Virus record (IMG/VR): IMGVR_UViG_3300021963_008171
Span: 10,995-74,994 of that record
Strand: one strand, 5' to 3'
Source of the DNA: a virus
Lineage: Duplodnaviria; Heunggongvirae; Uroviricota; Caudoviricetes
Length of the DNA: 64,000 nt
In this document: positions 13,198-64,000 of the stretch, in pieces
How the letters are laid out: the number at the start of each line of letters is the position of its first letter
Position numbering within the stretch: the stretch's first letter is position 1
Notes under the pieces: generated by a model
Told to the model about the DNA's origin: nothing
What the model saw: only the letters and a program-made list of their open reading frames with translations
The model's database searches: none
Program-made: the position numbers and the translations under genes

Positions 13198-13203
13198 AGT
13201 TGA

Positions 13204-13225: not shown

Positions 13226-13258
13226 CTTCAAATACAAATAAAACACGACTAAACCCCC

Positions 13259-13492: not shown

Positions 13493-13502
13493 TTAGGAAA
13501 GA

Positions 13503-14240: not shown

Positions 14241-14293
14241 ATTTAGGTATAGCTTAAAACACTATGCTTTAGTTACACGACCTAAAGTATAAA

Positions 14294-32764: not shown

Positions 32765-33380
32765 CCTTTCTTTTATCCGAAATGATGTAATCGTAAATTA
32801 CATCATTTTCTATTTCTACTCCAATATATTCTAGCATCCTTGCAATTTCTGAAATGTTATGGCCGACAAAAAGATCTTCATAATAAAATATAGGCCACGA
32901 ATTTTGTTCTGCTATTGAGGTCATTTTATAGGAAAAATATTTGAAAGATTCGATTTCATTCTTTAGTCTTTCCCGATCTATTTTATTTACATCATATATC
33001 TTAGGAATATCCCACCCAATCTTAGAATCTAGATTTATTAAAAGACTTTCTGCCTGTAATCCTTTATCTCTTCTATCCAAAACTATAACCTTATCAAAGA
33101 ATTCTTTCATCCAATCAGTAAATCTTCTTTCATCGTTTCCTGTCGATTTTTTGGGATGCTGGCTACATCCAAAAAGGGTTTTAGTTAATACCTGATCGTA
33201 TTTAAAAAAAGGATCTATATAATCAAAATCAAAACCTTCTTTATAATATGTAACGTAATTTTTTGGATTATATGGTTCATAGAAACATTGAAATCCCTTT
33301 GGATGTAAATGCGATTCCAACATTCTATATAAGGAGGTTGAACCTGTTCTTGGCCTAGCTAATATTGCTATTTTACTCAT
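32745..33380 (-). CDS. Stf0-type sulfotransferase-like protein
   Basis: 5'-PSB-like loop ILARPRTGSTSL and 3'-PB-like VIVLDRRDKGLQAESLL. Paralogous to the two upstream genes. Confidence 0.7.
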   Translation of the reverse strand: MSKIAILARPRTGSTSLYRMLESHLHPKGFQCFYEPYNPKNYVTYYKEGFDFDYIDPFFKYDQVLTKTLFGCSQHPKKSTGNDERRFTDWMKEFFDKVIVLDRRDKGLQAESLLINLDSKIGWDIPKIYDVNKIDRERLKNEIESFKYFSYKMTSIAEQNSWPIFYYEDLFVGHNISEIARMLEYIGVEIENDVIYDYIISDKRKVRIDPD

Positions 33381-41694: not shown

Positions 41695-42918
41695 ATGGTT
41701 TGGAATTACCAAGATACAGTGCTAGTTCATGTGGAACTTTCCAATCTTTGCAATGCTGCTTGTCCCCTTTGCCCAAGATATGTAAACAATTCGTTAAGGG
41801 TCAATCCAGAATTGGACTTGGGCAGCGTTTCTTTTGAGGATTTTAAAAAATGGTTCCCTCTAGAATTTGTACAAAAAAGTAAAGGATGGATATTCTGCGG
41901 TACTAATGGCGACCCCATGATGGCTAGAGACGTGTATGAGATATTAGAATATGTTCTCAGAAATTCGACTGCTAAGGTCCAGGTCAACACTAACGGTTCC
42001 ATAAGAGACGGGGAATTTTGGGAAAAAATAGGATCTTTATTTGCCGAGCCCTGTGAAAATAGCAGATATGTTGTTTTCTCTGTTGATGGACTGGAGGACA
42101 CGAACCACATCTACAGAAGAAACGTGAAATGGGAGAGGGTGATGGAAAATATGAGAGCCTATGCAAAATCAGGATCTACTGGTATTTGGGACTTTCTAAT
42201 ATTCAAGCACAATGAGCATCAGCTAGAGGAGGCTGAGCTTCTCTGCAAAGAAATAGGTCTAGCATTTTCTCCAAAAAGACCCTTTGGGTTTGAAACGGGA
42301 AATCCTGATGAATACCAGGACTTAATGGTTTATGACATGGAAGGAAATTTTTTATACAAGATAGAGCCGGCCAGCGAGGAGTGGAGATTAAATAGATCCA
42401 TGAATAAATTTGAGAGAGGAGAGGAAAAAATATGGATTCCGGGAAAGGGGAAAAGAACAGATGATGAAATCAAAGAAAAGTGGAATGGACTGATCGAGAG
42501 GGATCTTCCTAAATATAAATTCCCGGAAAGATTCAAAGAAAAATCAGTTAGTTGCAAATCTTGCCATCCTATCGGGAAGGAAATTTATGTTGATTGTAAG
42601 GGAAATGTTATGCCTTGCTGCTTTGTTGGAACAATGTACAACAGTGACTTTCAACACCACGAGGCATTACAGATAAAAAAACATTTATGGGACTGGGGAT
42701 TGGATAAAATAAATCTGAATAATCATTCTCTCAAAGATATACTAGATAGCAAATATCTAGATGAGGTTTTTGCCAACCGCTGGGAAGGAGCTAAGGATGA
42801 GGATAAAATGGGATATTGCTTTAACACATGCTCGGTTGATCACATGAAAGATCTTTTTGTCAGAAAGGAAAATCTACCAATTTCTTCAGAAAAATCAGGC
42901 AAAAAAAGTCTTATCTAG
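41695..42918 (+). CDS. radical SAM enzyme with a Cys-rich (SPASM/twitch-like) C-terminal region
   Basis: CxxxCxxC in LSNLCNAACPLCPRY. The C-terminal region has CKSCHP...CKGNVMPCCF...CFNTC. Confidence 0.75.
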   Translation: MVWNYQDTVLVHVELSNLCNAACPLCPRYVNNSLRVNPELDLGSVSFEDFKKWFPLEFVQKSKGWIFCGTNGDPMMARDVYEILEYVLRNSTAKVQVNTNGSIRDGEFWEKIGSLFAEPCENSRYVVFSVDGLEDTNHIYRRNVKWERVMENMRAYAKSGSTGIWDFLIFKHNEHQLEEAELLCKEIGLAFSPKRPFGFETGNPDEYQDLMVYDMEGNFLYKIEPASEEWRLNRSMNKFERGEEKIWIPGKGKRTDDEIKEKWNGLIERDLPKYKFPERFKEKSVSCKSCHPIGKEIYVDCKGNVMPCCFVGTMYNSDFQHHEALQIKKHLWDWGLDKINLNNHSLKDILDSKYLDEVFANRWEGAKDEDKMGYCFNTCSVDHMKDLFVRKENLPISSEKSGKKSLI

Positions 42919-42945: not shown

Positions 42946-45441
42946 ATGAACGATAAGATAAATTTAGTCTATGACGATTGGCCTCTTGATCAGGAAAGGC
43001 CGAATCCCAATGGAGATAAATATTTTCCAGAAGCAAATGCCTGGATGACTGGTGATGGTCCGATGGAGACTCTTCGATACTGCAATTACGTCAACCGAAG
43101 AATGGAAGATGTCGACAAGTACCAGGAGGAAAATTTCTTTTATGTTGTTTGGCATCGACATTCTCTCTATGACAGATTTTTGTATTTTGACAGACTTCCA
43201 ATAGGTGATGATATGATAGGGGCTTTCCAAAGAAAGCCAAATCTTTATCTTCTTTTAATAAACGATCAAGAGATAGAGCCTATAGAAACTATAAGCAAAC
43301 TTGATCTCGCTCTAGAAAGAAATAATATAGATCCAAGAAAGGTTTTTGTAGTTAACAACAATTCTAGAAATTGGGAATATAAAAAAGAATTGGGGAGTAA
43401 TATTAATGTTCATAGTACGAGGGCAATGCCTCTAGCATTGGCTAAAATTCCCAGAAGTAATTTCGTAGAGAATAAAGAAGGGCATTTTTTCATGTCACAC
43501 AACCATTCTTTAAGAGAAAGCAGATCCGCGTTTGTGTGTCTCTTAAAAAAATATGGACTGATCGATGATTTTGATTGGTCTTATTTGAAGCTCTGGAGAC
43601 TACCTGGTGAGGATTGGATAACTATCTATAGAAGAATATTCAACGATTCCGATATGGAATTCATGATGCCAGAAATAGAATATTTTAATTCTTATGGTAT
43701 TAAGAAAAGCAATTACGAGTCACATTTTCCGTGGCTTGATGAAATGACAACTAATAGTCCTTCTTGGTGGGAAACATTTAATTCACAGCAGTACGAGAAT
43801 ACCTATTTTAATGTAACTGTGGAAACACAATATTTTGGAAGGGACCTTCACATAACAGAAAAGTCATTTAAACCCTTTATCCATCTGCAGTTTCCTATGA
43901 TTCTTGCCTCCAGACATCATATAAAACATATGCGGGAGTATTACGGGTATGATTTTTTCGATGATGTGATTAACCACGATTATGATAACGTCGTAAGTGA
44001 TAGAGATAGAATCTTTAGGTTCATAGAAGAACTAAAAAGAATTCAGGAGAATAAAGAATTCTTTATCGATTTTTATAAAAATAACAAGGAAAGATTTCGG
44101 AGGAATCAAGAAATGGTTTATCAATTCACCAATGAATATGATGCTAGCTATTTCAGGGCATTGACAAAATTTGATCACCCAAAGAAAACCCTTAATCTTG
44201 TTTATGATAATTGGGATACCCAAACTAATCGCCCATTAAGAGGCAATTCTGAAGATCTTTACCTAAGTACATTCCACATGAATGTTGACAGTGTAGTTGG
44301 ATCCTTACAATTTGATAGAAGATTAATCAGAAGATATAGATTGGAAGATGTTCCTAAGATAAAAAATGAGACATTCTTTTATTTTGTCACCTTAATTCCT
44401 GGCATCCTAGCGGAGAATTTAAGATCTGGAAAACTACCAATAAATAGAGATGCTATCAACATGCTCAAGAATTATTCAAACTTTAATGTGATAATAATGA
44501 ATGAGCAGGAAGCAGAAAGAAAAGAAACACTGGTTCTTCTTGATAAATGGTCCAAAGAATCCGGCTTAAATCAGCAACAAATTTGGTTTTCTAATAACAA
44601 CCCAAGACTACAAGAATTCAAAGAGGAAATAGGAACTGATATAAATGTTCATTCGACAGTTAGACTTGCTAATTTCACAGCAAATTCTGTTATACATTCA
44701 GTGGGAAGGGTGGAGTTCAAGTCTGAGAAAGACGGGGAATTTTTCATGTGTCACAATAGAAGGCCAAGACCGCATAGATATGGTTTACTATGCTTGCTTA
44801 AAAAGAGCGGGGTTTTAGATGATGTTGATTGGTCTTTAGTTCAAGGGTTTCAGTTCAAGGGAAATAAGCACCCTGAATCCTTCTTTAGAACAATATTTAA
44901 CGATGAAGATATAGAAAACATGAGAGAAGAAATTGAGTACTTCTCTAACATAGAACAAAAGAAAAGTAGATACGAGGAAGAAAGAACATGGTTCGATGAT
45001 AGGGAAAATGAAAATAATGTTCCTTGGAATGAAACCTATGATAAAAATCAGTTGGAAAATTCATATTTCAATATCACAACAGAAACTGAATTTTCATCAG
45101 ATCTGACACACATATCAGAAAAATCTTTCAAAGCTTTCTGTGCAATGCAGTTTCCCATGATTCTTGCATCTGCTCACCACATCAGAGAAATTAAAAAGAA
45201 ATATGATTTTGATTTTTTTGATGATGTGATCAATCACGATTATGACGACGAAGAGAATCACAGAGACAGACTTTTTAAATTTGTAAAAGAGATAAAAAGA
45301 ATAAACGACAACAAGGAGTTCTTCATAGAATTTTATAAGAACAACAAATTTAGATTCGAGGAAAATCTTAGAAAAATAGAGGAGAAAGTAAAGGATCAAT
45401 CAGATTCTGACTTTTTAAAAAGAATATCTGGTATAATATGA
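42946..45441 (+). CDS. tandem-duplicated two-module enzyme, fucosyltransferase (GT10/GT11)-like C-terminal motif in each half
   Basis: The halves (aa 1-~411 and ~412-831) are colinear. Shared blocks: INLVYDDW/LNLVYDNW, NVHST, FFMSHN/FFMCHN, LCLLKK.G..DD.DWS, and HITEKSFKPFIHLQFPMILASRHH/HISEKSFKAFCAMQFPMILASAHH followed by FFDDVINHDYD. Confidence 0.45.
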   Translation: MNDKINLVYDDWPLDQERPNPNGDKYFPEANAWMTGDGPMETLRYCNYVNRRMEDVDKYQEENFFYVVWHRHSLYDRFLYFDRLPIGDDMIGAFQRKPNLYLLLINDQEIEPIETISKLDLALERNNIDPRKVFVVNNNSRNWEYKKELGSNINVHSTRAMPLALAKIPRSNFVENKEGHFFMSHNHSLRESRSAFVCLLKKYGLIDDFDWSYLKLWRLPGEDWITIYRRIFNDSDMEFMMPEIEYFNSYGIKKSNYESHFPWLDEMTTNSPSWWETFNSQQYENTYFNVTVETQYFGRDLHITEKSFKPFIHLQFPMILASRHHIKHMREYYGYDFFDDVINHDYDNVVSDRDRIFRFIEELKRIQENKEFFIDFYKNNKERFRRNQEMVYQFTNEYDASYFRALTKFDHPKKTLNLVYDNWDTQTNRPLRGNSEDLYLSTFHMNVDSVVGSLQFDRRLIRRYRLEDVPKIKNETFFYFVTLIPGILAENLRSGKLPINRDAINMLKNYSNFNVIIMNEQEAERKETLVLLDKWSKESGLNQQQIWFSNNNPRLQEFKEEIGTDINVHSTVRLANFTANSVIHSVGRVEFKSEKDGEFFMCHNRRPRPHRYGLLCLLKKSGVLDDVDWSLVQGFQFKGNKHPESFFRTIFNDEDIENMREEIEYFSNIEQKKSRYEEERTWFDDRENENNVPWNETYDKNQLENSYFNITTETEFSSDLTHISEKSFKAFCAMQFPMILASAHHIREIKKKYDFDFFDDVINHDYDDEENHRDRLFKFVKEIKRINDNKEFFIEFYKNNKFRFEENLRKIEEKVKDQSDSDFLKRISGII

Positions 45442-47105
45442 AAAAGGTACTAATTACAGGATGCAATGGTTTAGTTGGAAGCTATCTAAGAGATCTTTGT
45501 TTAGATAATGGATGGAAAGTTACTGGTGTAGATAGAAACGCAACAAAGAGAATTACCAGAGATTTTAATTACAAATTTAAAAAACTAGACTTATTAATAG
45601 AACAAAATATAATAGATCTTTTTAAAGATGAAAAATATGATGTAGTATTTAATTGTTTTGGAATTAAAGGATCTCCAGTAAGGGCAAAAAATAATCCTGT
45701 TGATTTTCTGTACCCGTCTTTTAAAATAAACACTGAGATAATAAATCAATGTTATTTAAACGACACGTGGTTGGTTTTTGTTAGCTCTGTTGGTGTTTAT
45801 AGCCCAGCAGAAAAATTCTCAGAAGATGATGTTTGGAAAACACTACCATCAGAATCCGATTGGTTTCCGTCTTGGTCTAAAAGAATGGGAGAATTGCTAT
45901 TGGAATCATATCGGGTTCAATATGGATACAACAAATGGACGATAGTAAGACCAGCAAATATATTTGGTGAATACGACGACTTTAGTGGTAGTGGAACATT
46001 GATATCAACCATGGTAAAAAAGGTCTACGAATCTTCTGGAGAGATTGAAGCATGGGGAGACGGCACACCTATCAGGGATTTTGTTTACGGAAAAGACGTT
46101 GCTTTGTCTTTAATAAAACTTTATGAAGAAGAAATAAACGATATAGTTAATTGCGGGTCAGGAATAGAGGTATCAATAAAAGATGTTGTTGAAGAAATTA
46201 TAAAAGCAAGCGGGAAGGAAATCTCAGTAAAATGGGATTCTTCTAAACCTAATGGAGATCTTAGAAGACTAATGGATACCACAAGACAGGAAATTCACGG
46301 GATAATGCCAAAAACCAATTTTTCCGATGCTATACTTAATGTTTATAAATATTACTCAGGTCTTTTCGAAGAGGAGTTACCAGTAATATCTAAAGACGAT
46401 TTGCTCGTCGAAGGTGCATATGTTGGAAAAATATCTGATTTCCTAGAGGAGGATGAATTAGAGCTTTTCAAAGAAATGATAGAGGATGTTAAAGAGTACT
46501 CCTCCGAAGATATTGAAAATAGACTTTCGTGCAAATATAATTATGACGATATAGTAAATGAATATGACCATAATATTCCACCCAGTAAAGTTGCGGAGAG
46601 AGATGCATTTATTCGAAAGAATAAATATCACGTTTGGCAAAAATGGTGGGATTTTAGGTATCCTAAAGAGTCATATTTCAGCGAGATAGCCACAAAAATA
46701 TTAAAGGATCTTTACCCACAGGCTGCCGCTGCTTTGAATGAGGCTAAGATATCAGGATCTATGGCACTTTTTGAAGATGGACATTTCATAGACATTCACA
46801 ACGATGGAGCTAATGTAGGAAGACTTTGTGTAATTATATTCTATCTCTCCGACCCTTCTGCTCATAATAACGGGGGAGGGGAATTAAGAATAATTACCAG
46901 CACAGGAAAAGAATTTATAATAGATCCAGTTTTTGATAATTTCTGCGTGATGGATTTTGCAAAGAATAACATAAAACATGAAGTAAAGATGGTTAATAAC
47001 GGATTTAAAAGATATACCTATATAAATTTTATATCACTCAAAGATGGGATTTTAGAATCAATTTTCCCGAACGAAATAAAAATAGAAAAGAAAAAAATAA
47101 TATGA
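45438..47105 (+). CDS. fusion protein: NAD(P)-dependent epimerase/reductase (extended SDR) plus C-terminal 2OG-Fe(II) oxygenase-like domain
   Basis: N-terminus VLITGCNGLVGSYL, RPANIFG and WGDGTPIRDFVY. C-terminus IDIHNDGANVGRLCVIIFYLSD...GGGELRI...IKHEV...RYTYINF, giving HxD, a distal His and an Arg. Confidence 0.65.
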   Translation: MKKVLITGCNGLVGSYLRDLCLDNGWKVTGVDRNATKRITRDFNYKFKKLDLLIEQNIIDLFKDEKYDVVFNCFGIKGSPVRAKNNPVDFLYPSFKINTEIINQCYLNDTWLVFVSSVGVYSPAEKFSEDDVWKTLPSESDWFPSWSKRMGELLLESYRVQYGYNKWTIVRPANIFGEYDDFSGSGTLISTMVKKVYESSGEIEAWGDGTPIRDFVYGKDVALSLIKLYEEEINDIVNCGSGIEVSIKDVVEEIIKASGKEISVKWDSSKPNGDLRRLMDTTRQEIHGIMPKTNFSDAILNVYKYYSGLFEEELPVISKDDLLVEGAYVGKISDFLEEDELELFKEMIEDVKEYSSEDIENRLSCKYNYDDIVNEYDHNIPPSKVAERDAFIRKNKYHVWQKWWDFRYPKESYFSEIATKILKDLYPQAAAALNEAKISGSMALFEDGHFIDIHNDGANVGRLCVIIFYLSDPSAHNNGGGELRIITSTGKEFIIDPVFDNFCVMDFAKNNIKHEVKMVNNGFKRYTYINFISLKDGILESIFPNEIKIEKKKII

Positions 47106-48077: not shown

Positions 48078-48983
48078 ATGAAGGGATTGATTTTTGCTGG
48101 TTGTTCTTTTACCTGGGGTCAGGGATTATATTACTATTCGGGATTGAATACTTTAGTCGAGCCTGAACCAGATTGTTATGATGCTAGTCTTATCACAGAT
48201 GCCCATAAAAGATATATGGAAACACTGAGATATCCCAGGATAGTTGCAAATCATTTCAACACGTTTGAGTTGGTGTCTAAGCAAAATGGAGGATCTGAAG
48301 AAAGTTCGATTGATTTTATTAATTCAGCATTTGGAATTGGGGAAAAATTTGGATTTTTAACAGATCAGGAATTTTCTTTTAGCGAAATAGAATATGTTAT
48401 AATACAAACATCCCAACCGAATAGAAATGGATTTTACTTCCAATACGAGGGAGAGGAACATAAATTCTTGATTCACGAAAAATCATCAAAAGGTAAATTT
48501 TACGAATGGCTTATAGAAGAAAGAAAATTAACTATCGATGAGTGGTTTGAAGAGCACAAGGAAACATACATTGAGAAAATAAAAAGATTGATGAAGTTCC
48601 TTGAATCCAATGGAATTAAAACGAAAATACTCTGCTGGGAGAACGATTATTTAAATCTAATCAGATCTGATATTTTTATGTACAACAGATTTATCCCGTT
48701 GGAATACAGAGGGGATCAATTTTCGTCCATAAGAGATTTAATGTCCAAACACTCGCATCTTACCATAAATTCAGATTATGATAACTTTCAGGATCCTCCG
48801 AAGGATCACCATCCATCTAAAGAATGTCACCAGGTTCTAGCAGAATCTGTTATAAAATCTATAGAAAGTGATCTGAAGAATTTAAGCGAAACCCATATTT
48901 TTGATGATCACAGGGAGTTTATGAAAACTCTTCCTTGTCCAGCAAAAGAGCCAATTATAAAAAAGGCTAAAACCCTTATATAG
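48078..48983 (+). CDS. divergent SGNH-like hydrolase
   Basis: ATG 48078 is in frame with track ORF 48051. The N-terminus LIFAGCSFTWGQG has GCS in place of GDS. The C-terminus is PKDHHPSKECHQVLAESV. Confidence 0.45.
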   Translation: MKGLIFAGCSFTWGQGLYYYSGLNTLVEPEPDCYDASLITDAHKRYMETLRYPRIVANHFNTFELVSKQNGGSEESSIDFINSAFGIGEKFGFLTDQEFSFSEIEYVIIQTSQPNRNGFYFQYEGEEHKFLIHEKSSKGKFYEWLIEERKLTIDEWFEEHKETYIEKIKRLMKFLESNGIKTKILCWENDYLNLIRSDIFMYNRFIPLEYRGDQFSSIRDLMSKHSHLTINSDYDNFQDPPKDHHPSKECHQVLAESVIKSIESDLKNLSETHIFDDHREFMKTLPCPAKEPIIKKAKTLI

Positions 48984-50421
48984 GTTTTTCTGGTGGATAT
49001 GGATAAGTACCTGTTTCGAAGTGCGTTATTCTTCCATCGTTAAGATTAACTACTGGAATGGATTGATCAACTTTTATAGCCCCATACCATTCAGCTAATT
49101 CTGGAAAAGTCTCTTTGAAGTTCTTACCCCTTCTACTATCATATTGTACATAGAAGCTTTTGAAATCATGGTGTAGTATCGATTTATCGTCTTCTGTTGT
49201 ATTGTGCCCTTTCTCTACAACCTGTATGTAATCCAATAATCTTTGAACCTGAGCAAATTCTCCAACACTGAATAAATTGGGTGTCATTTTTTCGTTGAAC
49301 CATTTACTCAATTTTGCATGAAGCTCAGCTTTGATTTCATCAGGAAGAACTAATGGTGACATAAATGCCGGCCATCTTAGAATATTAAGATCAACGTTTG
49401 GTTTATTTGCACCATATTTCTTTTTTAGTTCTATCATATCATCCAAGAAATCAGTGATGCTAAATAGACATAAACTGTTGATTGTCATCATTATGGTTAA
49501 AGATCTTAATTTAGCTCTTTCGATTAAGCTAACAAGATTGCTTCTCCATGTTTCGTAAACTAATCCGTCTCTAATATATTCTGCATGTCTTCCATAGGAT
49601 TCGTTGCTAGTATAGATGTCCATTTCTTTAATGTCCATCGTGTGTGACATTGCTATCATCTTCTCTAATGTTTGTTCTGTCATTCCGAGATTTGAATTAA
49701 CAGCAAGTCTTAGATTAGGAGAAGGGTTGGATTTTAATATGTCTATGAAATCCCAAAAATTGTGGCTCAAAGAAGGCTCTCCCCCTGTAATTCTGATCTC
49801 CTCTAATGTTTGAGATAACTCTGGCCACCATTCGAAAAAAGCCTGTACGAATGGATTCCTTTCGTTATACTTTCCAAATATTTCTGACCAAGAACCGTCA
49901 CTTCGGTATGCACCCGCTGAATCTGTTCTCATCTTTTGATATGGACCAAATTGCTGAATTTCCTTTCCCCACGTGGTACTGTATCCTGCATTACAATAGC
50001 TACACGCAAAATTACAAGTTCTATCAAAGCTTATTTCTAATGTCTTTAAAAGAATATCATCTCTGTAATCGGTCTCTTCTATTTTAGCTATGTCTTCCTC
50101 GTTATAGATGATGCTTTTGTAAACCCTGTCAGATACATTGTTTCTCCCTATGTCCTCTATTTTCCAGCAATAAGAGCATTCTGCAGGTCTAATGCCACTA
50201 AGCATCATTTTTCGCATTTGCTTTTTATGCCTTGTGTTGTGAATTGCAGAAGGATTTGTTTTTATTTCTTCCAAGTCTATAGGATGCGGAAGGGGTAAAT
50301 GGCAGGATCCGGTGTATCCATGTCCAAGATGTATACTTGCATTGTACCATTTCGCTGCACAAAAGCTTTTGCTTATCTTATTAAGGTTTTTTTCTCTCCA
50401 GTCTATCAGTTCTTTTGACAT
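48976..50421 (-). CDS. radical SAM enzyme (paralog of 50989..52383)
   Basis: CxxxCxxC in DRTCNFACSYCNAGYS. The N-terminal Cys/His cluster is CAAKWYNASIHLGHGYTGSCHLPLPH...ECSYCWKIED. Confidence 0.75.
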   Translation of the reverse strand: MSKELIDWREKNLNKISKSFCAAKWYNASIHLGHGYTGSCHLPLPHPIDLEEIKTNPSAIHNTRHKKQMRKMMLSGIRPAECSYCWKIEDIGRNNVSDRVYKSIIYNEEDIAKIEETDYRDDILLKTLEISFDRTCNFACSYCNAGYSTTWGKEIQQFGPYQKMRTDSAGAYRSDGSWSEIFGKYNERNPFVQAFFEWWPELSQTLEEIRITGGEPSLSHNFWDFIDILKSNPSPNLRLAVNSNLGMTEQTLEKMIAMSHTMDIKEMDIYTSNESYGRHAEYIRDGLVYETWRSNLVSLIERAKLRSLTIMMTINSLCLFSITDFLDDMIELKKKYGANKPNVDLNILRWPAFMSPLVLPDEIKAELHAKLSKWFNEKMTPNLFSVGEFAQVQRLLDYIQVVEKGHNTTEDDKSILHHDFKSFYVQYDSRRGKNFKETFPELAEWYGAIKVDQSIPVVNLNDGRITHFETGTYPYPPEKPI

Positions 50422-50429
50422 AGTCTAAA

Positions 50430-51011
50430 TTATATTTGGTGTAGAAAATTGCAGTTATCTGTTAGATCGTAGCTTTTTCCGTGGATGAATTCTTCGAATA
50501 CATGCTTACTTATAGTTTCTTCGTCTCTTATTATTTCCAGTTCATGAAGAATTACCTCAAGATAATTGAGATTAAATTCATTTTTCGGGAAATTCCCAGC
50601 TCCAAATATTATATGTGAATTTGTGTCTGCTGCTAATTTGTCGTTTATAAAATAAAGGGTTAATGCATTTCCGTCTATATAAACAGTTATTACACCATTT
50701 CCTTTTGTTACCAACAATTCATATTTTCTGTTTGGCTCCCATTCAAAGTTACAAGAAAGATATTCAGTTTTTCCTTTACCGTCAGTAACAATTAATAGCA
50801 TGCCATATTCCTCCAGATCTATTCCAAGGTAGCTGGGAAGTTTAGCAAATAGAGTTGATTTTCTAGTTATTTCTTTCTCTAGTTCAAAGACTAGCTTAAA
50901 ACTAAAATCCCCTTCATAATCAAATATGTGATTTGCTGGATCTTTTATGAATTTTTGTCCTAATATATTAGGCCACATTATCCAGGGTTCACCCTCTTTT
51001 ATTTTTAACAT
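50430..51011 (-). CDS. LamG/concanavalin-like jelly-roll protein
   Basis: FSFKLVF...RKYELLVTKGNGVITVYIDGNAL...NSHIIFGAGNF...LEVILHELEII fits the Laminin_G_3 pattern. Confidence 0.5.
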   Translation of the reverse strand: MLKIKEGEPWIMWPNILGQKFIKDPANHIFDYEGDFSFKLVFELEKEITRKSTLFAKLPSYLGIDLEEYGMLLIVTDGKGKTEYLSCNFEWEPNRKYELLVTKGNGVITVYIDGNALTLYFINDKLAADTNSHIIFGAGNFPKNEFNLNYLEVILHELEIIRDEETISKHVFEEFIHGKSYDLTDNCNFLHQI

Positions 51012-52383
51012 CTTCGTAGAATTTTTTTAGTTCAGGAAAGGTTTTTATAAAATCTGTACCTCTTCTTTTATCGTGTTCATCAACAAACAATACAAAATCT
51101 TTTCTATTTTTTTCAACGTCGAATCCATCCTCTGATATAGCATAGTCATAGATTCTTTTTATCTTTTGAATCTCAACATCGGAAAATCCATAATTATCGT
51201 GTGTGAATTCAGGTGTTGCGTAATAGAATGCTTTTTGAGCAGCTTTGAATATGAGCTCTTTGTGTTCGTCGTTAAGTATTTTAACCGACTGATGCTCTGG
51301 CCATCTTAGATAGGATGTATCTAGCTGTATGGCAGATATCCAATACCTTTCTTTGTTTTGGTATTTCTTTTTTAGCTGGAATATCTTTTCTATTAACTTA
51401 GAATACCCAAACACCGACATTGCGTTAAACGTTGCCATAACGTTCACTGTGACCTTCGGAAGTTCGGTTAGGATAGTTTCTACATTTTCGAAGAAGTGGT
51501 CAAAATTGAGCCCGAAACGGATGTATTCGGCTTGTTCTTTCCATGCTTCACACGAGGTAAATACTATTAGCTCGTTTACCCTGTTTTCCTCAATTATTTT
51601 TTTACACAATTTCACAAATTTTTCTACCAGATTTTTAGGAACACCAAGATTGGTATTGATTGAAAGATTTAATTTTCTATTAGGTTCCTCGGTTTCTGCT
51701 ATGAATTCTAATAACTTCCACGTGTCTTTTGAAAGAAGTGGTTCACCACCAGTTATTCTAAATGTGTGTAAGTCGTTGTAAAGATCTGGCCACCATTCCC
51801 AAAATGCTTCAACGTATGGATTTTCTTCTGAATGCTTGTATGGTATTTGTCCGGTTTCCCTGGGCCATTTAAGATCATTAAAATTTGTTGATGTTGGATA
51901 TCCCCCATGATTTTCTATTTCTTCCATCCATTTGGAAGAAAACATAGGGCTACAATAGGAGCATTTGAAATTACACGTGTTTGAAAAATTAACCTCAACA
52001 TATTTTGGATTGTAATCTGAGCTCCATCTTAGATTTTTAATTTCGTCCATGTGTGGAAATGACCATGGCTCTGAGCTTTTGAAAACCCTATCAGAAAAAG
52101 ATTCTGAACTATCTTCCACCTTCCAACAATAATTACATTCCTCGGGTCTTTGCCCATTTAACATTTCCCTTCTCACCTTCTTTTTGTGCTTGGTGTTGTG
52201 AAGAGCCGATGGATTATTTTCCAGTTCGCTCAAAGGAATTTTATGTGGAATCGGGTGATGACATGAATGCGTCATTCCATTATGAAGATGCATAGTAACT
52301 TGTGTCCACTTAGCGAGACACATCCCACATCCAGTTGAATTTAATTCTTTTCTTGTTTCCTCAAAAATTCTTTGATCGCTCAT
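50989..52383 (-). CDS. radical SAM enzyme (paralog of 48976..50421)
   Basis: SNTCNFKCSYCSPMFS. The N-terminal cluster is CGMCLAKWTQVTMHLHNGMTHSCHHPIPH...ECNYCWKVED. Confidence 0.75.
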   Translation of the reverse strand: MSDQRIFEETRKELNSTGCGMCLAKWTQVTMHLHNGMTHSCHHPIPHKIPLSELENNPSALHNTKHKKKVRREMLNGQRPEECNYCWKVEDSSESFSDRVFKSSEPWSFPHMDEIKNLRWSSDYNPKYVEVNFSNTCNFKCSYCSPMFSSKWMEEIENHGGYPTSTNFNDLKWPRETGQIPYKHSEENPYVEAFWEWWPDLYNDLHTFRITGGEPLLSKDTWKLLEFIAETEEPNRKLNLSINTNLGVPKNLVEKFVKLCKKIIEENRVNELIVFTSCEAWKEQAEYIRFGLNFDHFFENVETILTELPKVTVNVMATFNAMSVFGYSKLIEKIFQLKKKYQNKERYWISAIQLDTSYLRWPEHQSVKILNDEHKELIFKAAQKAFYYATPEFTHDNYGFSDVEIQKIKRIYDYAISEDGFDVEKNRKDFVLFVDEHDKRRGTDFIKTFPELKKFYEDVKNKRG

Positions 52384-53825
52384 TATGCTTTACAATTTAT
52401 TAAAAGTACGTTATTGCCAAGATCCTTCGCCGTGATTAATTCATATTGCATATTATTAATCCCGTCGCTCTTGTAATCTATGGATCTTCTTTGCATTTCT
52501 GTAACAAATCTTCTTTCGTTTCTGGCTGTTGTTTCTCCCTTAGCCCATTTATTGTTTACTAATCCTTCGTCAACATGTGGCATGCATTCAAAATCTCCTT
52601 CTCTTCTAAATGGTATTGGCATATCAGTAACCGAAAAATCCTTCTTCTCAAATTCCACATTTTTATGATCTGCTCTTACTCCTTTTATTAAATCTGGTAT
52701 TTTTTCTGCTGATATATTTTCAAAATCATAATGCAAGACAGGATCTATTTTCTTTGAATGAAAATCCGATATTTGACTAGCATTATCTACGAATTTATCA
52801 AATATAAGTAATTCTGCTATCTCTCCCCTGAAATTTATAGGATTTCCTTTATCTGCATTGGTTCCTAAATACATCGGACTTTTATCTTCGTAATTGAACA
52901 TACCTCCAAATATGTAAGTGGATTTTTCCTCCTTGATGCCCTTTTCGTTAGATTTTCCAAGCTCGTCATTAAGAAAAAAGTTAAATCTGGACTCAGATTC
53001 TTTATACGAAGTTGTCACCCATGTCCATTCTTCGTCACTTCTTTTGAGCCAATTGTAAAACATAGTTTTGTCCTGGTTGTAAACCATGCTTGTTACTGCT
53101 CTTGAATTATTGAAAGAGATTGAATATGGACAATAGCTTTGCTTTCTAAAAACTGGAAATTCTATAAATTGTTTATCTTCCTCCCCTATTAACCATTCGT
53201 TATACTTTTCATTCTGTTGCTGAGCCCGGAATAAAACCGCTATGGTGTGATCTTTGGTTAACAGGTGATTCATTTCTTTTTTGTGAGGAATCTTTATCCA
53301 TGAATCCTCCCCATTAAAAATTGCAACATTCTTCTGATCGTACTTTTTATACACCCTGCAGTTAGAGTATCCCTCGAAATGAGCACGGAAAAAAAGATCA
53401 TCGTCTTCCATTCCCCAATCCCAATAGTTATTAGAATATCCATTTGTTCTCTCCACCTGCTCCTTGGTAAAAAGAACCACCCCGCCAAAGTATTGTTCGT
53501 AATTTAATTTGTAATCATACTTTGATAGTTTGGTTGCTATATGAACAGGATTTTCTCCTGGGTAGGAATAATCACAGTCTTCTGACACTGGTATCATATC
53601 AATATCGTGCCATGCTATGTAATCACATCCGTCATCAAAAGCAAACTTGGCTGCAATGTTCTTCATTAAACCCCGGTTAAAGAGTTTATCGTCCATTTGA
53701 TTTGCAACATAGAATTTATGTTCTATTCCTCTCTTGTTCAGAAATTCTGTCAAGTGCGGAACTAGTTTTTGTAAATGTTCGTATCTATTTCTGTATGGGA
53801 TACAGATTCCAAGTTTATGTTTCAT
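52383..53825 (-). CDS. GT7 (beta-1,4-galactosyltransferase-like) glycosyltransferase with an inserted LamG-like domain
   Basis: Start ATG 53825, forming an ATGA overlap. IPYRNRYEHL..., FNRGLMKN, HDIDMIPV and YFGGVVLFTKEQVERTNGYSNNYWDWGMEDDDLFFR compare with mammalian B4GalT1 [36 protein letters not shown]. The C-terminal tail SDGINNMQYELI... resumes the GT7 fold after a ~230-aa insert. Confidence 0.8.
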   Translation of the reverse strand: MKHKLGICIPYRNRYEHLQKLVPHLTEFLNKRGIEHKFYVANQMDDKLFNRGLMKNIAAKFAFDDGCDYIAWHDIDMIPVSEDCDYSYPGENPVHIATKLSKYDYKLNYEQYFGGVVLFTKEQVERTNGYSNNYWDWGMEDDDLFFRAHFEGYSNCRVYKKYDQKNVAIFNGEDSWIKIPHKKEMNHLLTKDHTIAVLFRAQQQNEKYNEWLIGEEDKQFIEFPVFRKQSYCPYSISFNNSRAVTSMVYNQDKTMFYNWLKRSDEEWTWVTTSYKESESRFNFFLNDELGKSNEKGIKEEKSTYIFGGMFNYEDKSPMYLGTNADKGNPINFRGEIAELLIFDKFVDNASQISDFHSKKIDPVLHYDFENISAEKIPDLIKGVRADHKNVEFEKKDFSVTDMPIPFRREGDFECMPHVDEGLVNNKWAKGETTARNERRFVTEMQRRSIDYKSDGINNMQYELITAKDLGNNVLLINCKA

Positions 53826-55234
53826 ATGCCTACGTCTACCCAAGTTATATTCTTGTCTTTTTTTATTCCGTGTTCTGTGAATTTGATTCTGAATACACCA
53901 TCATCTTCATCTGATGATGACATACTATAATTTTTAGAAACCTCGTTGATGAACCTCAATTGATTCCATCTAGTTGCCTGATCCTTCCATTTATTTTCAA
54001 AGAATCCATTCTCACTGTGACCAAGTGCTTTGAATAATCCCTTCCTCCTTCTGGGAATTTCTAATTTTTTGTGTGATGGAATTTCCATTTCCCTGATATC
54101 ACAATTGAATATTCTAGCATGATTCCTATTTCCGGATTGATCTACCAATCGATAATTTCTGATACTTTTTGCATTGTAAAGAAGATGTAGCTCGTTAGAA
54201 ATTTTATATTTTCTAAATTTTTGATTTTTAGTTAATTCCTCTACCTCTTCTTTGGATAAACATTTCTTGACAACTGCAAATGAGTCTATCAGTCCTTTAA
54301 ACATATTAGGATCTCCTATTCTGTGTGGATTTCCTGCTCCTAGATAAAACAAATCAACATCATCATATGACCTTAAAGATTCGAATCCCTCAGATTCTCC
54401 TATTAATTCACCATCCTGATAGAATTTGATTTTCTTTTCTCCTAATGATATTGTCACACAAACTGTAGTTTGATAGTTTGTTTTAATATCGGAATTCACG
54501 TAAAAAGCTTTTTCTTCCTTATCGAATGTTACAAAATTGTATCTCTGAAAAGAATTATAAGAAACTGCAGTGTCATATCCAGGTAAGCTAAATGCTGTAA
54601 AAACGTCCGAATCCTTTGTGTGATCACACTCGATATCTTCTGGATAAAAAGAAACAAAAAATGTTAGATCCGTATCAAGATCAAAATTGTTTTTAATCTC
54701 GACGTAAGAATTAATTCCATTAAAATATAATGCTGTGAATTTCTTTTTTGAATTCTTAACAAATCCAAAATCAGTCTCACATCCGTTTCTAACGCATCTT
54801 AATAATAGATCATCGTCTTCGAATCCCCATCCCCAATATCTGTTTGAGTAACCATTTATTCTTCTAAATTCATCTGCTGGAAAAATAGTAACACCACCAA
54901 AATATTGATCGAAAGTCTTTTTTGTATTTCCAGATTCTACCTCCACTATATTTTTAGCCAAGTGAACTGGGAATGGTGAATAACTATAATCAACATCAAC
55001 AGGAAGAAGATCTATGTCATGAAATACCACATAATTACATCCAAGTCTTTTTGCGTATTTGAATCCAATATTTAAGAGCATCCCACGGTTAAATTGCTTA
55101 GCATCATCTTGGTTGATAATGATAAGCTCGAATGAGATCCTTTTCTCGTCAAGATAATTTATTAGATGTCTCTTGAATGCTAGAAGATGCTCCCATCTGT
55201 GCCGATGAGGTACTATTACTCCTAGTTTATTCAT
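53822..55234 (-). CDS. GT7 (beta-1,4-galactosyltransferase-like) glycosyltransferase with an inserted LamG-like domain (paralog)
   Basis: VPHRHRWEHL, FNRGMLLN, HDIDLLPV and YFGGVTIFPADEFRRINGYSNRYWGWGFEDDDLLLR. The insert contains FKGLIDSFAVVKKCLSKEEVEEL. The tail ...NITWVDVGI compares with B4GalT1 ...TQITVDIG. Confidence 0.8.
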   Translation of the reverse strand: MNKLGVIVPHRHRWEHLLAFKRHLINYLDEKRISFELIIINQDDAKQFNRGMLLNIGFKYAKRLGCNYVVFHDIDLLPVDVDYSYSPFPVHLAKNIVEVESGNTKKTFDQYFGGVTIFPADEFRRINGYSNRYWGWGFEDDDLLLRCVRNGCETDFGFVKNSKKKFTALYFNGINSYVEIKNNFDLDTDLTFFVSFYPEDIECDHTKDSDVFTAFSLPGYDTAVSYNSFQRYNFVTFDKEEKAFYVNSDIKTNYQTTVCVTISLGEKKIKFYQDGELIGESEGFESLRSYDDVDLFYLGAGNPHRIGDPNMFKGLIDSFAVVKKCLSKEEVEELTKNQKFRKYKISNELHLLYNAKSIRNYRLVDQSGNRNHARIFNCDIREMEIPSHKKLEIPRRRKGLFKALGHSENGFFENKWKDQATRWNQLRFINEVSKNYSMSSSDEDDGVFRIKFTEHGIKKDKNITWVDVGI

Positions 55235-55430
55235 TCAAATTATCGTTTTCTTCTACGAATTTAGTGTGGAATTCAGACAGATAGAATTGGATTCGGTTGC
55301 TCCATTCGTTTTTGTCTATCTCCTCTACCCAAGCTGTTAGGTCTTCCATACAGTTTGCAATCTTTTCTAATGCTTTAACCTTTCTGATTTCCAGGTCTTG
55401 TGGATTTTCTGTTTTTTTAGATACTGACAT
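55227..55430 (-). CDS. hypothetical small acidic protein
   Basis: 67-codon ATG ORF with an 8-nt overlap onto the downstream gene. Confidence 0.45.
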   Translation of the reverse strand: MSVSKKTENPQDLEIRKVKALEKIANCMEDLTAWVEEIDKNEWSNRIQFYLSEFHTKFVEENDNLNE

Positions 55431-55441: not shown

Positions 55442-56287
55442 TTATATGGATGTGATAATTTTTATTAATTTTTTCCAGGAAGTGTATCCATCATAGCTGT
55501 TTACATTCTGCTCGAACATAAATGAAGGATCGCTTACGTCTAGTTTATTCTCTATTATAGCATCATACATCTTTTTATATTCGGATGAAAATGCATATTG
55601 TGAATTTACGTCCGCCACAGCCTTGATCCTTTCTAGACACGTTGAATCCCATTTGAAGTGATGAACTTGGACCGAGTATTTTTCAACTGGAGCAATTAAT
55701 GGATGATTCCACCCCTGCCATTTCCATGTTGTATAGCCATCTATCTTTGCATAGTGCTGGCCAGAAGTTATTTGAACGTGCCCCTTTACCAAACAAACTT
55801 TATTTGGGCAGGCATTACTTAGTGGATATCTAAAAAACCCAGCAAGTGGAAATTGAGAAAATATGTCTTTTCCTGATCTTATTCTGGGGAATTCACCATC
55901 TTCTCCTAATCTATCAACAAATCCACCTCTAACCAAATCCCACCCATTTTTTTCGCAGTCGTCTGCTATTCTTCTTGGATGATCGTTGTAAAGATGAAAT
56001 TCATCAATATCAGCAACCATCCACCAATCGTTAGGATGCTCATATTTACAAGAATTATAAATTGTGGTTACCTCTTCCCAGTCAAAACCCCTACTTTTTC
56101 TGGATCCGCAGATTTTTACATTCTTGTGATCCTTTATCTTTTCCTCTACCTGTTTTTTTAAATCTGGATAAAGATCCGATTCATAGACGTAAAACAAAAT
56201 TTCATCCACATTAAATTTACTATAATGTTGAATGAAGTGGGGTATAAGATTAACCCCGTGTCCTATTACTGATACGACTCTAAGCAT
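55442..56287 (-). CDS. glycosyltransferase-like protein (GT2_4/GT92-like, DxDEF motif)
   Basis: DWWMVADIDEFHLY resembles the dW....D.DEf motif of the Glyco_tranf_2_4 and GT92 families. Confidence 0.45.
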   Translation of the reverse strand: MLRVVSVIGHGVNLIPHFIQHYSKFNVDEILFYVYESDLYPDLKKQVEEKIKDHKNVKICGSRKSRGFDWEEVTTIYNSCKYEHPNDWWMVADIDEFHLYNDHPRRIADDCEKNGWDLVRGGFVDRLGEDGEFPRIRSGKDIFSQFPLAGFFRYPLSNACPNKVCLVKGHVQITSGQHYAKIDGYTTWKWQGWNHPLIAPVEKYSVQVHHFKWDSTCLERIKAVADVNSQYAFSSEYKKMYDAIIENKLDVSDPSFMFEQNVNSYDGYTSWKKLIKIITSI

Positions 56288-57011
56288 TTTTTCTTTTTAA
56301 TATAGTTATACCGCTCGAAGCTGGTTTTTCTTTTAATCTTCCATAATTGAATAAATTAAAAATTTCCCATTCATCGTTATTAAAATCCTTTACGAATTGG
56401 GAAGGACCTGAGAAATCATGGAAATCCTTTTTCTGGTCCTCTGTTACTATATAATTTTCTGAAAAGCTTGGATCTGTGTCGTGTATAGCGATTATCCCAT
56501 TCTTTTCCATTATCGTGCTGTACATATTAAAATCCTTGGAAACCCCTTCATATGAATGATCGCCGTCTATAAATAAGAAATCTATTTTGATGTCTTGCAT
56601 TATAAAGAAATCATAGAATGCTTTCTCTGATGTTTCTTTTATAAATCTTGGGTGGAAATTAGATCTATAGAATCCAGATTCGTCCATCATATTGGATTGT
56701 CCCCCGATTCCATTGCAAGGATCTACCACGTAGGTAGCTCCGATATCTCCCCAATTGTAATCGGGATTTCCTTCGAATATTCCCGAACCGTGTAAATCTA
56801 TTCTTGCCTGTGTCATTATCCTAGGAATAAAACCTCCCCCGCTCCCAATACACACGCAATTTTTAGATCTTGTAAACTGGATAAGCGAGTATATTAATAG
56901 TCCATCGCCTAGATCAGAATCCGTTGCACCATGTGACCAGCGGAAAGGTACAGGAATTTCCCCGTCGTTTGTTATCTTTTCCCTGATATAATCTAAATTC
57001 AATACCATCAT
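56280..57011 (-). CDS. class I SAM-dependent methyltransferase (Methyltransf_24/CmcI-like)
   Basis: Motif I CVCIGSGGGFIP, then FLFIDGDHSYEGVSKDFNMY...GIIAIHD. Confidence 0.6.
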   Translation of the reverse strand: MMVLNLDYIREKITNDGEIPVPFRWSHGATDSDLGDGLLIYSLIQFTRSKNCVCIGSGGGFIPRIMTQARIDLHGSGIFEGNPDYNWGDIGATYVVDPCNGIGGQSNMMDESGFYRSNFHPRFIKETSEKAFYDFFIMQDIKIDFLFIDGDHSYEGVSKDFNMYSTIMEKNGIIAIHDTDPSFSENYIVTEDQKKDFHDFSGPSQFVKDFNNDEWEIFNLFNYGRLKEKPASSGITILKRKNA

Positions 57012-60737: not shown

Positions 60738-60812
<75 letters not shown>

Positions 60813-62838: not shown

Positions 62839-64000
62839 ATGCCATTAATTTTAAGAAACGTCAAAGGTTCGGCTTTAACCATCAATGAGATGGATGATAA
62901 CCTTGAGTATTTATACAATAGGACATCGGTTGGAACATCAGGTACTGCTGGTACATCAGGTATTCAAGGATCCCAAGGATTTCAAGGTGCTCAGGGTCTA
63001 ACAGGACCTCAAGGTCTTAAAGGTGATACCGGGTCAACCGGAGCACAGGGTAGCACAGGATCAACCGGGGCTCAAGGAGCTCAGGGATTAACTGGTTCAG
63101 GAGCACAGGGAGCAGAAGGTCCAACCGGAGCACAGGGTAGCACAGGATCAACCGGAGCTCAAGGAGCTCAGGGATTAACTGGTTCAGGAGCACAGGGAGC
63201 AGAAGGTCCAACAGGGGCTCAGGGAGACATTGGATCTACAGGATCACAGGGAGCGCCGGGAACAGGAGCACAGGGAGCGCCAGGTCCAACAGGAGCACAG
63301 GGTGATACAGGTTTAACCGGAGCTCAAGGAATTAGCGGAACATCTGGCCAGTCAGGAGCACAAGGTCCAGCAGGTTCAGGAGCGCAAGGGGATCCAGGTC
63401 CAACGGGAGCTCAGGGAGACCCTGGATTAACAGGAGCACAAGGTCCAGCAGGGGCGGGAGCTCAGGGAGAGGCTGGTCCAACGGGAGCTCAGGGAGACAC
63501 TGGATTAACGGGAGCACAAGGAGCACAAGGTCCAGCAGGTTCTGGGGCACAGGGTGATTCAGGTCCAACCGGAGCTCAGGGGGACATCGGATTAACAGGA
63601 GCGCAAGGACCAGCAGGTTCTGGAGCCCAGGGTGCAGAGGGTGCTCAGGGAGCAACAGGAGCAGATGGATCCTCAATTACCTGGATGGGTGGATGGGTTA
63701 ATAATATACCATACGGAGAAAACGATGTAGTACAATATAATGGCAATTCCTACATAGGAACTGTAAATTCGATAACAGTAGGGGTAGCACCTGAAAATAA
63801 TCTAGCGGAATGGGACATATTTGTTCTTTCTGGGGAAGGAGCTCAAGGAGCAGAAGGAGCACAGGGTGCTAACGGAGCAGCTGGAGCACAGGGAGCAGCA
63901 GGTGAAGGAGCTCAGGGAGATGCCGGATCTGCAGGAGCGCAGGGAGCTAAAGGAGATGATGGGTCCGCAGGGGCACAAGGAGCAAAAGGAGACACAGGAG
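62839..64000 (+). CDS. collagen-like (Gly-X-Y) fibre protein with an embedded CBM5/12-like module; 3' end lies beyond the window
   Basis: Hand translation is open from ATG 62839 to the window edge. N-terminus MPLILRNVKGSALTINEMDDNLEYLYNRT. About 250 residues of GXY follow (GTSGTAGTSGIQGSQG...). A non-collagen block ITWMGGWVNNIPYGENDVVQYNGNSYIG...AEWDIFV lies at 63676-63828, after which GXY resumes. Confidence 0.85.
   Translation, partial: MPLILRNVKGSALTINEMDDNLEYLYNRTSVGTSGTAGTSGIQGSQGFQGAQGLTGPQGLKGDTGSTGAQGSTGSTGAQGAQGLTGSGAQGAEGPTGAQGSTGSTGAQGAQGLTGSGAQGAEGPTGAQGDIGSTGSQGAPGTGAQGAPGPTGAQGDTGLTGAQGISGTSGQSGAQGPAGSGAQGDPGPTGAQGDPGLTGAQGPAGAGAQGEAGPTGAQGDTGLTGAQGAQGPAGSGAQGDSGPTGAQGDIGLTGAQGPAGSGAQGAEGAQGATGADGSSITWMGGWVNNIPYGENDVVQYNGNSYIGTVNSITVGVAPENNLAEWDIFVLSGEGAQGAEGAQGANGAAGAQGAAGEGAQGDAGSAGAQGAKGDDGSAGAQGAKGDTG
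63034..63207 (+). repeat. 2 x 87-bp tandem duplication inside the collagen-like gene
   Basis: 63034-63120 and 63121-63207 differ at 2 positions. Each encodes 29 aa ((S/P)TGAQGSTGSTGAQGAQGLTGSGAQGAEG). Confidence 0.9.

Follow-up and report, generated by a model that had tools for sequence, protein, structure and literature searches.

Results

Two tandem genes on a stretch of viral DNA encode enzymes of glycosyltransferase (GT) family 7 (GT7) whose catalytic domain is interrupted by a jelly roll resembling a laminin G (LamG) domain. The stretch, here called the window, comprises 64,000 nucleotides (nt) of the IMG/VR record IMGVR_UViG_3300021963_008171 (positions 10,995 to 74,994; Caudoviricetes), and a check of the translations showed that positions 52383-55234 are occupied by two minus-strand open reading frames (ORFs), termed A and B (Table 1). 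A preliminary description of this DNA had proposed a tandem pair of GT7-type enzymes, each with a LamG-like domain inside its catalytic domain, and this architecture was borne out by an alignment from which the insert had been excised, by structure models and by compact natural relatives. What that description had missed is the setting of the pair, which forms the centre of a conserved six-gene operon in what is, by its gene content, a large tailed phage. We consider it fairly probable that A and B are soluble Mn-dependent uridine diphosphate (UDP)-hexose transferases adding consecutive sugars to an intracellular acceptor that is recognised by the insert.

The N-terminal parts of A and B form a GT7 catalytic core

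All motifs quoted in the preliminary description were found in the translations, i.e. HDIDMIPV and HDIDLLPV, QYFGGV...NGYSN.YW.WG.EDDDL, LIFDKFVDN, IDSFAVVKKCLSKEEVEEL, IPFRREGDFECMPH...SDGINNMQYELI and RWNQLRF...NITWVDVGI. The first ~165 residues of both proteins matched the Pfam families Glyco_transf_7N and Glyco_transf_7C, with 67.3 and 77.9 bits for A and 71.0 and 66.2 bits for B at gathering cut-offs of 27 and 23, respectively. A PDB search with a single sequence returned Drosophila and human beta4-galactosyltransferase (B4GalT) 7 and B4GalT1 with E values of 1e-30 to 1e-37 over residues 8-163 (A against B4GalT7 3lw6: E 1.9e-37, residues 8-159, phmmer), and the E values for B4GalT7/B4GalT1 improved to 1e-44 with a profile of 76 sequences. 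The identity of this N-terminal core (N-core) to the animal enzymes was 36-41%, with PxRNR, FNR(G/A), HDID, QYFGG and YW.WG.EDDD aligned in register, and the catalytic motifs were invariant across 76-77 homologs of each paralog. These sequence comparisons confirm a GT7 homology of the N-terminal ~155 amino acids (aa) that is far beyond chance. Searches of PHROGs, NCBIfam and PADLOC with A and B gave no match.

Neither protein carries an N-terminal membrane anchor or stem, and both should thus be soluble: the GT domain takes up the chain from residue ~3-8 onwards, with its first strand starting at residue 4-11 in the models. For A, the start codon is most likely the ATG at 53825 (MKHKLG..., 480 aa) rather than the TTG at 53843, because the orthologs of A have 480 aa and this ATG overlaps the stop codon of B in the sequence ATGA. 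Residue numbers of A refer to the 486-aa form, which is the form that was modelled, with some segment borders given in the numbering of the 480-aa form.

The motifs of A and B are equivalent to D252/D254, Y289, W314 and E317/D318 of bovine B4GalT1. Replacement of the QYFGG-type Tyr of B4GalT1 by Leu or Ile opens that enzyme to N-acetylgalactosamine (GalNAc). Since the Tyr of QYFGG in A and B is equivalent to Tyr289 of the bovine enzyme, the analogy suggests a hexose donor (UDP-Gal or UDP-Glc) over an N-acetylhexosamine donor.

The LamG-like domain is inserted into the GT-A fold

Both Pfam GT7 models stop before the jelly roll, and Pfam alone reads the order 7N-7C-LamG. AlphaFold2 models were calculated from alignments of 76-77 sequences and reached a pLDDT of 91.6 and a pTM of 0.86 for A, and 93.4 and 0.89 for B. 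In both models, the GT strands and helices are followed by a long all-beta block and then by a strand, a helix and a beta-hairpin, and the GT-A fold could be superposed on B4GalT structures from end to end of the catalytic domain, with the C-terminal part included. When residues 161-408 were deleted in 15 family members, a single uninterrupted HMMER alignment was obtained over profile positions 3-220, and the insert-excised profile spans residues 51-260 of B4GalT7 and 51-259 of B4GalT1. After excision, H423 of A and H406 of B align with the His of 'RMIRH' in B4GalT1 and of 'FSHIH' in B4GalT7; on this alignment, they occupy the position of the metal-binding His that opens the flexible lid of B4GalT1, and are putative metal ligands.

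Excision lifted the HMMER score only from 153.7 to 154.5 bits, a profile of the C-terminal segment (C-segment) on its own found no match in the PDB at E<=10, and an hhalign comparison of this segment with an approximate human B4GalT1 C-terminal sequence gave 12% probability, in register at DG(I/L)N...Y. Because the score barely rises and the isolated C-segment finds no PDB match, its homology is backed by the modelled fold and by the register, without statistical significance of its own. The return of GT7 at the C-terminus, as read in the preliminary description, is thus real by structure and not significant by sequence alone, and the match to B4GalT1, which had been called nearly residue-for-residue, applies to the N-core and does not extend to the C-segment.

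The junction is bridged by natural relatives of 215-228 aa. In 15 such compact relatives, which were aligned with the insert-excised A and B, the EDDD helix leads straight into R-R-x-G-x-F-x-x-L-x-H, DGL..L.Y and a terminal K-V-x-I, as in the C-segments of A and B, and the His is conserved in 14 of them. The preliminary description had named a C-segment lying outside the GT-A fold as the outcome that would speak against an insertion; models, excised alignment and compact relatives all place it inside. We regard it as confirmed that the LamG block is an insertion into an otherwise compact enzyme and not a C-terminal fusion. The insertion falls between the helix that follows EDDD and the His strand, ~12 residues before the His, with which the mobile long loop (lid) of B4GalT1 starts.

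The insert is the fastest-evolving segment

The insert of B scored 45.1 bits against Laminin_G_3 (cut-off 27.6). That of A matched Laminin_G_2 with 13.7 bits, under the cut-off of 22.9, and many A-type orthologs do carry PF13385. The secondary structure of the B model is all-beta from residue 155 to 393, and both inserts form beta-sandwich jelly rolls; at ~240-248 aa they are somewhat longer than the ~230 aa estimated in the preliminary description.

The insert evolves faster than any other segment of the proteins. Within the A family, the mean identity to the protein of the window is 76% in the N-core, 41% in the insert and 60% in the C-segment, and the identity between A and B in the same segments is 45%, 20% and 29%. 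The insert nevertheless retains invariant or near-invariant positions, and a motif shared by the paralogs reads S-F-N-N-S-R in A and S-Y-N-S-F-x-R-Y in B. Since A and B align collinearly through N-core, insert and C-segment (30% identity, E 8e-54), the insertion is older than the duplication that gave rise to them. A strand with the pattern 'D-x-SGN-x-N' is located after the Pfam-matched part of the LamG domain; it led us to consider a circular permutation of this domain, which we do not claim.

A and B belong to a conserved six-gene module of large tailed phages

The order and orientation methyltransferase, GT2-like enzyme, 67-aa protein, B, A and radical S-adenosylmethionine (SAM) protein were fixed in 36/36 related loci, down to ~40% identity; one locus is without the first two genes because its contig is short. 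The junctions overlap by 8 nt (67-aa protein/B), 4 nt (B/A) and 1 nt (A/radical SAM gene), and, to judge from these reading frames, A and B are translationally coupled in a fixed operon. The methyltransferase has a weak PDB match (6g7d, 'Methyltransferase domain protein'), the GT2-like protein found no match in the PDB or NCBIfam, and a PDB sequence search with the radical SAM protein was uninformative. Sugars are substrates of twitch enzymes such as BtrN. The 67-aa protein is probably helical, with the conserved core ERKVKALEKIA..W.EEIDK.EW..R.Q.YL; a role as precursor of a ribosomally synthesised and post-translationally modified peptide or glycocin was considered and rejected, as its core is uniformly conserved and has no variable or Cys/Ser/Thr-rich region.

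The coding density of the window is 91%, with small and often overlapping genes, and the PHROG matches of its ORFs include the T4 Srd anti-sigma factor, a sigma70 decoy, endonuclease VII and HNH endonucleases, among others. On the grounds of these matches and of the gene packing, the replicon is a large tailed phage; an origin from a giant virus, considered on account of one related 7.5-kb contig with a GVMAG label, was rejected. Relatives of the pair were found at 32 loci on IMG/VR viral contigs and also on contigs of 86-345 kb from metagenomes. A search of the genomes of 185,579 species gave a single carrier, a 23-kb contig with the same module and 25-29% GC in the bin of a Pelagibacterales metagenome-assembled genome (MAG); it is probably a phage contig and gives a weak hint at the host. 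The module was also observed on the 278-kb contig JACCDP010966648.1 (L037) of the NCBI assembly GCA_013565555.1. The contig numbers of this assembly suggest a total of nearly a million contigs, and it is likely either metagenomic or host-associated with a jumbo phage among its sequences.

Proposed function

All parts required for catalysis are kept in A and B: PxRxR and FNRG for nucleotide binding, the DxD motif (HDID), the W-G-x-E-D-D-D loop with the catalytic base, and the His after the insert. We propose that the two proteins are cytoplasmic inverting GT-A enzymes, which would transfer sugars from a UDP-hexose in a Mn2+-dependent manner and would add two successive sugars onto one glycan. 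The GT2-like enzyme might extend this glycan, and the methyltransferase and the twitch radical SAM enzyme might tailor it, while the LamG insert would serve as a built-in acceptor-recognition module. The lectin domain of GT27 enzymes and alpha-lactalbumin steer the acceptor choice of GT-A catalytic units, and by this analogy a role of the insert in acceptor specificity appears reasonable. The analogy is a functional one: the ricin-type lectin domain of the GT27 ppGalNAc-transferases is appended C-terminally and alpha-lactalbumin is a separate protein that specifies B4GalT1, whereas the inserted domain is of a different, LamG/ConA-like fold and lies within the catalytic domain.

The acceptor should be reachable in the cytoplasm. 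Our first guess is a protein of the virion or its fibres that is synthesised during infection, and our second a lipid-linked glycan of the host envelope. We favour a structural protein of the phage because export machinery was not seen (no flippase, polymerase, ligase or initiating phosphoglycosyl transferase was among the family matches of the scanned window ORFs), because fibre-like genes are near, and because there are precedents for viruses glycosylating their own particles, namely chlorovirus capsids, mimivirus fibrils and mycobacteriophage virions. It is tempting to go further and to view the LamG domain before the mobile lid as an in-cis specifier in a virus-specific GT7 branch, the counterpart of alpha-lactalbumin acting in trans on B4GalT1. 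The paired enzymes, together with the methyltransferase and the radical SAM enzyme of the twitch type, would then build a novel modified glycan on virion proteins, e.g. collagen-like fibres, of jumbo phages that are abundant in aquatic habitats but uncultured; taken as a whole, this picture is speculative and we think it unlikely.

Several points weigh against the proposal. The assignment of the donor depends on one residue, characterised in vertebrate enzymes. The residues preceding the His are C-M-P-H in A versus A-L-G-H in B, which means that B is without the second metal ligand and may behave differently. The fast evolution of the insert may be due to no more than weaker constraint. No cultured phage is known as a carrier, as blastn and tblastn searches with the genes and with other regions of the window against 50,697 deposited phage genomes gave no match. 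A module as strictly conserved as this one differs from the hypervariable islands that are typical of receptor arms races, which weakens both guesses of a target, virion and host envelope. Lastly, the KdsB-like CMP-Kdo synthetase encoded in the window favours an acceptor in the host envelope, and a study of pelagimyophages reads such GTs as remodelling the O-chain of the host (PMC7029224).

In this last alternative, the operon would modify a lipid-linked precursor of lipopolysaccharide, O-antigen or capsule at the inner membrane face, leading to superinfection exclusion or receptor masking, and the LamG domain would bind a host glycan. It would suit the two GDP-fucose-synthase-like short-chain dehydrogenases/reductases (SDRs) and the SGNH/GDSL esterase-like proteins encoded in the window, as well as the position of a compact GT7 relative beside genes for GT9 (the heptosyltransferase family) and GT11. 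It accords poorly with the lack of flippase, polymerase, ligase and initiating transferase noted above, with a module that is strictly conserved and not hypervariable, and with the near-absence of the family from bacterial genomes, which argues against a recent capture from a host. We regard remodelling of the host surface as rather unlikely, and as the most serious competitor to glycosylation of a phage protein.

The insert might also be purely structural, with no part in the choice of acceptor, and serve in oligomerisation, in formation of an A-B heterodimer or as a docking site for the radical SAM enzyme or the 67-aa protein, or one of the paralogs might be a non-catalytic partner. A and B are indeed always adjacent and translationally coupled, B is without the Cys/Met preceding the His in A, and the S-x-N-x-S/F-x-R motif shared by the paralogs could be an interface. 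All catalytic motifs are, however, invariant in both paralog families, and LamG, pentraxin and CBM40 relatives are typically ligand-binding modules, so that we judge this explanation very improbable. Least probable of all is hypermodification of DNA, in which the GTs would put sugars on modified bases of the phage DNA, as is done by T4 glucosyltransferases and by the GTs that add glycans to 5-hydroxymethylcytosine (5hmC), once base or sugar had been prepared by the methyltransferase and the radical SAM enzyme. There are GT-A enzymes of phages which assemble glycans of several sugars on 5hmC (bioRxiv 10.1101/2023.12.21.572611), and the phage has T4-like early-gene homologs and, in the window, 2-oxoglutarate (2OG)-Fe(II) oxygenases, but the GT types and partner genes that are the hallmarks of DNA glycosylation are absent, known DNA GTs being JGT-like GT-A or T4-BGT-like GT-B enzymes beside a C5-cytosine methyltransferase plus TET-like oxygenase or beside thymidylate-synthase homologs, none of which were among the Pfam/PHROG matches in a scan of 45 window ORFs for their top families, while the oxygenases of the window are of the prolyl-hydroxylase type (2OG-FeII_Oxy_3), its methyltransferase belongs to Methyltransf_24 and is not a DNA methyltransferase, and a lectin-like LamG domain fits glycan or protein ligands better than DNA.

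Distribution and relation to known GT7 enzymes

An exhaustive search of metagenomes with the N-core returned 5482 clusters (50% identity level) at a limit of E<=0.001, of which 153 reached E<=1e-30. The 150 best include about fifty of 450-510 aa and many of 215-230 aa in which the core starts from residue 1. The homologs of B number at least 2037, and all 120 listed have 452-479 aa at 100% query coverage. Each paralog is represented by ~2000 sequence clusters (90% identity), nearly all of them labelled 'hypothetical protein'. The viral structure library BFVD includes giant-virus proteins of the compact GT7-like type as well as many LamG proteins that stand free; the combined GT7-LamG architecture was not found there, the best TM-score over the query being 0.37. 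Literature searches on GT7 or Glyco_transf_7 in connection with phages or LamG likewise gave no description of this architecture. The preliminary description had called the enzymes metazoan-like, which is partly an effect of the reference databases, since the 5482 metagenome clusters and the giant-virus proteins in BFVD share the core; outside animals, this core is much more widespread than one would expect from these databases.

Related environmental sequences still include the compact form without insert, which is the ancestral one. The compact metagenomic GT7 proteins (215-230 aa; P0358, P0353, P0371) have the same soluble core from residue 1, with an N-core that is 42-48% identical. Of the giant-virus GT7-like proteins, A0A5J6VLB6 and A0A481YZG5 are 31-32% identical in Foldseek alignments, and A0A076FM45 is a third. 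Unlike A and B, the compact and the giant-virus proteins are without an inserted domain and lie outside the six-gene module. Should compact soluble GT7 enzymes prove common among the viruses that infect microbes, the 'animal' B4GalT family would have a large sister group in the environment, viral in part, with a bearing on its origin.

GT7 enzymes are textbook enzymes of the animal Golgi, where they have a type II membrane topology with anchor and stem. A and B, in contrast, are soluble and encoded by a phage, topology not being part of the CAZy family definition. From animal B4GalT7 (PDB 3lw6, 4irq) and B4GalT1 (1o0r, 6fwu), both of CAZy family GT7, they also differ by the LamG jelly roll of ~245 aa placed ~12 residues before the metal-binding His. 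A and B are thus GT7 members by sequence and by fold that differ from all solved members in solubility and in the insertion, with donor and acceptor as predictions. They provide a natural experiment, in which a domain is inserted beside the conformational lid of a well-studied enzyme and insert-free relatives are available for comparison.

As a system, the module is not of a new kind: its parts, its chemistry and the glycan-gene islands of marine phages are already known. In marine T4-like phages, a 'host recognition cluster' is reported to unite tail fibres, GTs and radical-SAM cassettes (PMC7029224). The likeness of the locus analysed here to these clusters consists in a large aquatic myophage-type genome with GTs, sugar-nucleotide enzymes and radical-SAM cassettes near fibre-like genes. 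In the published islands, however, GT8 is dominant, the gene content is hypervariable and GT7 is not among the families reported, whereas the module described here is colinear in 36/36 loci. What stands out is that a soluble GT7 enzyme split by a lectin-type domain forms the centre of a conserved operon in widespread uncultured large phages, which provides a lead to a glycan made by phages.

Two observations on the relatives may be added. Several environmental proteins (P0304, P0310, P0316, P0328 and P0338; 450 to 1686 aa) have two or three GT7 cores per chain, a further elaboration of the family outside animals. The compact 223-aa protein P0358 (L040, 123-kb metagenome contig, gene 8001-8672) is encoded in a dense glycan-gene island together with GT11, GT2, GT47/exostosin-like, GT9, FkbM-type methyltransferase, DegT and asparagine-synthase-like genes.

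Genomic surroundings

The preliminary description had placed the pair next to a sulfation operon and had raised the idea of a sulfated product like a glycosaminoglycan or N-acetyllactosamine. All that we found was a sub-threshold Sulfotransfer_3 match (22.4 bits, cut-off 27, 35 residues) at 32745-33380, ~19 kb from A and B, in an ORF that had no match in NCBIfam, and an APS_kinase match (E 5.4e-10) in an unlocalised P-loop ORF. ATP sulfurylase was absent from the Pfam families returned for the scanned window ORFs, which were those of ~100 aa or more. The sulfation operon is hence unsupported, and the idea of a sulfated product loses its basis with it. The surroundings are related to glycans in other respects, with two GDP-fucose-synthase-like SDRs, the KdsB-like cytidylyltransferase, SGNH/GDSL esterase-like proteins and 2OG oxygenases. 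The fusion of one of the SDRs to a 2OG oxygenase domain is an unusual pairing for sugar-nucleotide modification.

Table 1 Features of the window, with the six-gene module first and neighbouring features below.
Feature	Position	Strand	Description
Methyltransferase, module gene 1	56280..57011	-	243 aa, class I SAM, Methyltransf_24; PF13578 E 3.5e-11; 35/36 loci
GT2-like glycosyltransferase, module gene 2	55442..56287	-	281 aa, Glyco_tranf_2_4; PF13704 E 4.8e-8; 35/36 loci
67-aa protein, module gene 3	55227..55430	-	8-nt overlap with start of B; 36/36 loci
Protein B	53822..55234	-	470 aa, GT7 enzyme with LamG insertion; Pfam 7N, 7C and Laminin_G_3 above cut-offs
B N-core	54779..55234	-	aa 1-152, donor-binding half of GT-A fold; PHRHR, FNRG, HDIDLLP (DxD), QYFGG, YWGWGFEDDD
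B insert	54056..54778	-	aa ~153-393, LamG_3 jelly roll; Pfam PF13385 residues 174-331, E 1.5e-11
B C-segment	53822..54055	-	aa 394-470 + stop, completes GT7 fold; invariant P394, H406, G410, W416, N424
Protein A	52383..53825	-	480 aa from ATG 53825 (486 aa from TTG 53843); GT7 enzyme with LamG insertion
A N-core	53364..53825	-	aa 1-154 of 480-aa form; PYRNR, FNRG, HDIDMIP (DxD), QYFGG, YWDWGMEDDD
A insert	52620..53363	-	aa ~155-402, LamG/pentraxin-like jelly roll
A C-segment	52383..52619	-	aa 403-480 + stop; strand with invariant His (H423, 486-aa numbering), helix, terminal beta-hairpin with DGINNMQY
rSAM1, module gene 6	50989..52383	-	464 aa, twitch-domain radical SAM; NCBIfam NF033640 N_Twi_rSAM E 2.2e-104; directly after A, 36/36 loci
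Optional accessory ORF	50430..51011	-	193 aa, possible jelly roll; between two radical SAM paralogs; 24/36 loci
Optional accessory rSAM2	48976..50421	-	481 aa, second twitch radical SAM paralog; NF033640 E 8e-92; subset of loci
SDR-2OG fusion	45438-47105	+	GDP-fucose-synthase-like SDR with C-terminal 2OG-FeII_Oxy_3; also in L001 and L039
831-aa ORF	42946-45441	+	between SPASM radical SAM and SDR genes; 85-89% identical in closest relatives
DUF6734 protein	31862-32764	+	~24 kb from module here; few kb upstream in 28/36 related loci
Ro60/TROVE-like RNA-binding protein	26845-28470	+	phrog_850 E 5e-42, Pfam TROVE
KdsB-like CMP-Kdo synthetase	21193-21915	+	179 bits at a cut-off of 193
tRNA-Met (CAT)	60738-60812	+	single; between SPFH/Band 7 gene and RNase T-like exonuclease gene
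Collagen-like Gly-X-Y ORF	~62880-64000	+	frame of base 62737; GTSGTAGTSGIQGSQGFQGAQG...; short non-collagen break; runs off window end

Three radical SAM genes lie within 11 kb, at 48976-50421 (-), 50989-52383 (-) and 41695-42918 (+), two of them full-length NF033640 and one of the SPASM type, and related loci carry up to five radical SAM paralogs in a row. In one locus (L039, 331-kb contig), a 935-aa protein at 11439-14246, about twice the usual length, stands in place of the first radical SAM gene, which suggests a fusion. The free-standing LamG-like ORF reported in the preliminary description does lie between the radical SAM paralogs, but its LamG character is only suggestive: the matches of the 193-aa protein to the Pfam families TS_C and Laminin_G_3 were sub-threshold, hhalign aligned it in register with the insert at 6% probability, and BLASTP against B was not significant. 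The 831-aa ORF had no match in Pfam, PHROG or NCBIfam, and PADLOC revealed no link to a defence system.

The collagen-like ORF begins at a distance of ~7.7 kb from A, beyond the far end of the module, and probably encodes a fibre protein of the phage. Since the window encodes 2OG oxygenases of the prolyl-hydroxylase type, its product is a candidate target of glycosylation or hydroxylation. On the jumbo contigs, the module is preceded by very large proteins without family match, by LamG_3 proteins or by a fibrinogen-like protein. Given the distance of the DUF6734 gene from the module in the window, the block of glycan genes at 33-50 kb looks like a lineage-specific insertion or rearrangement.

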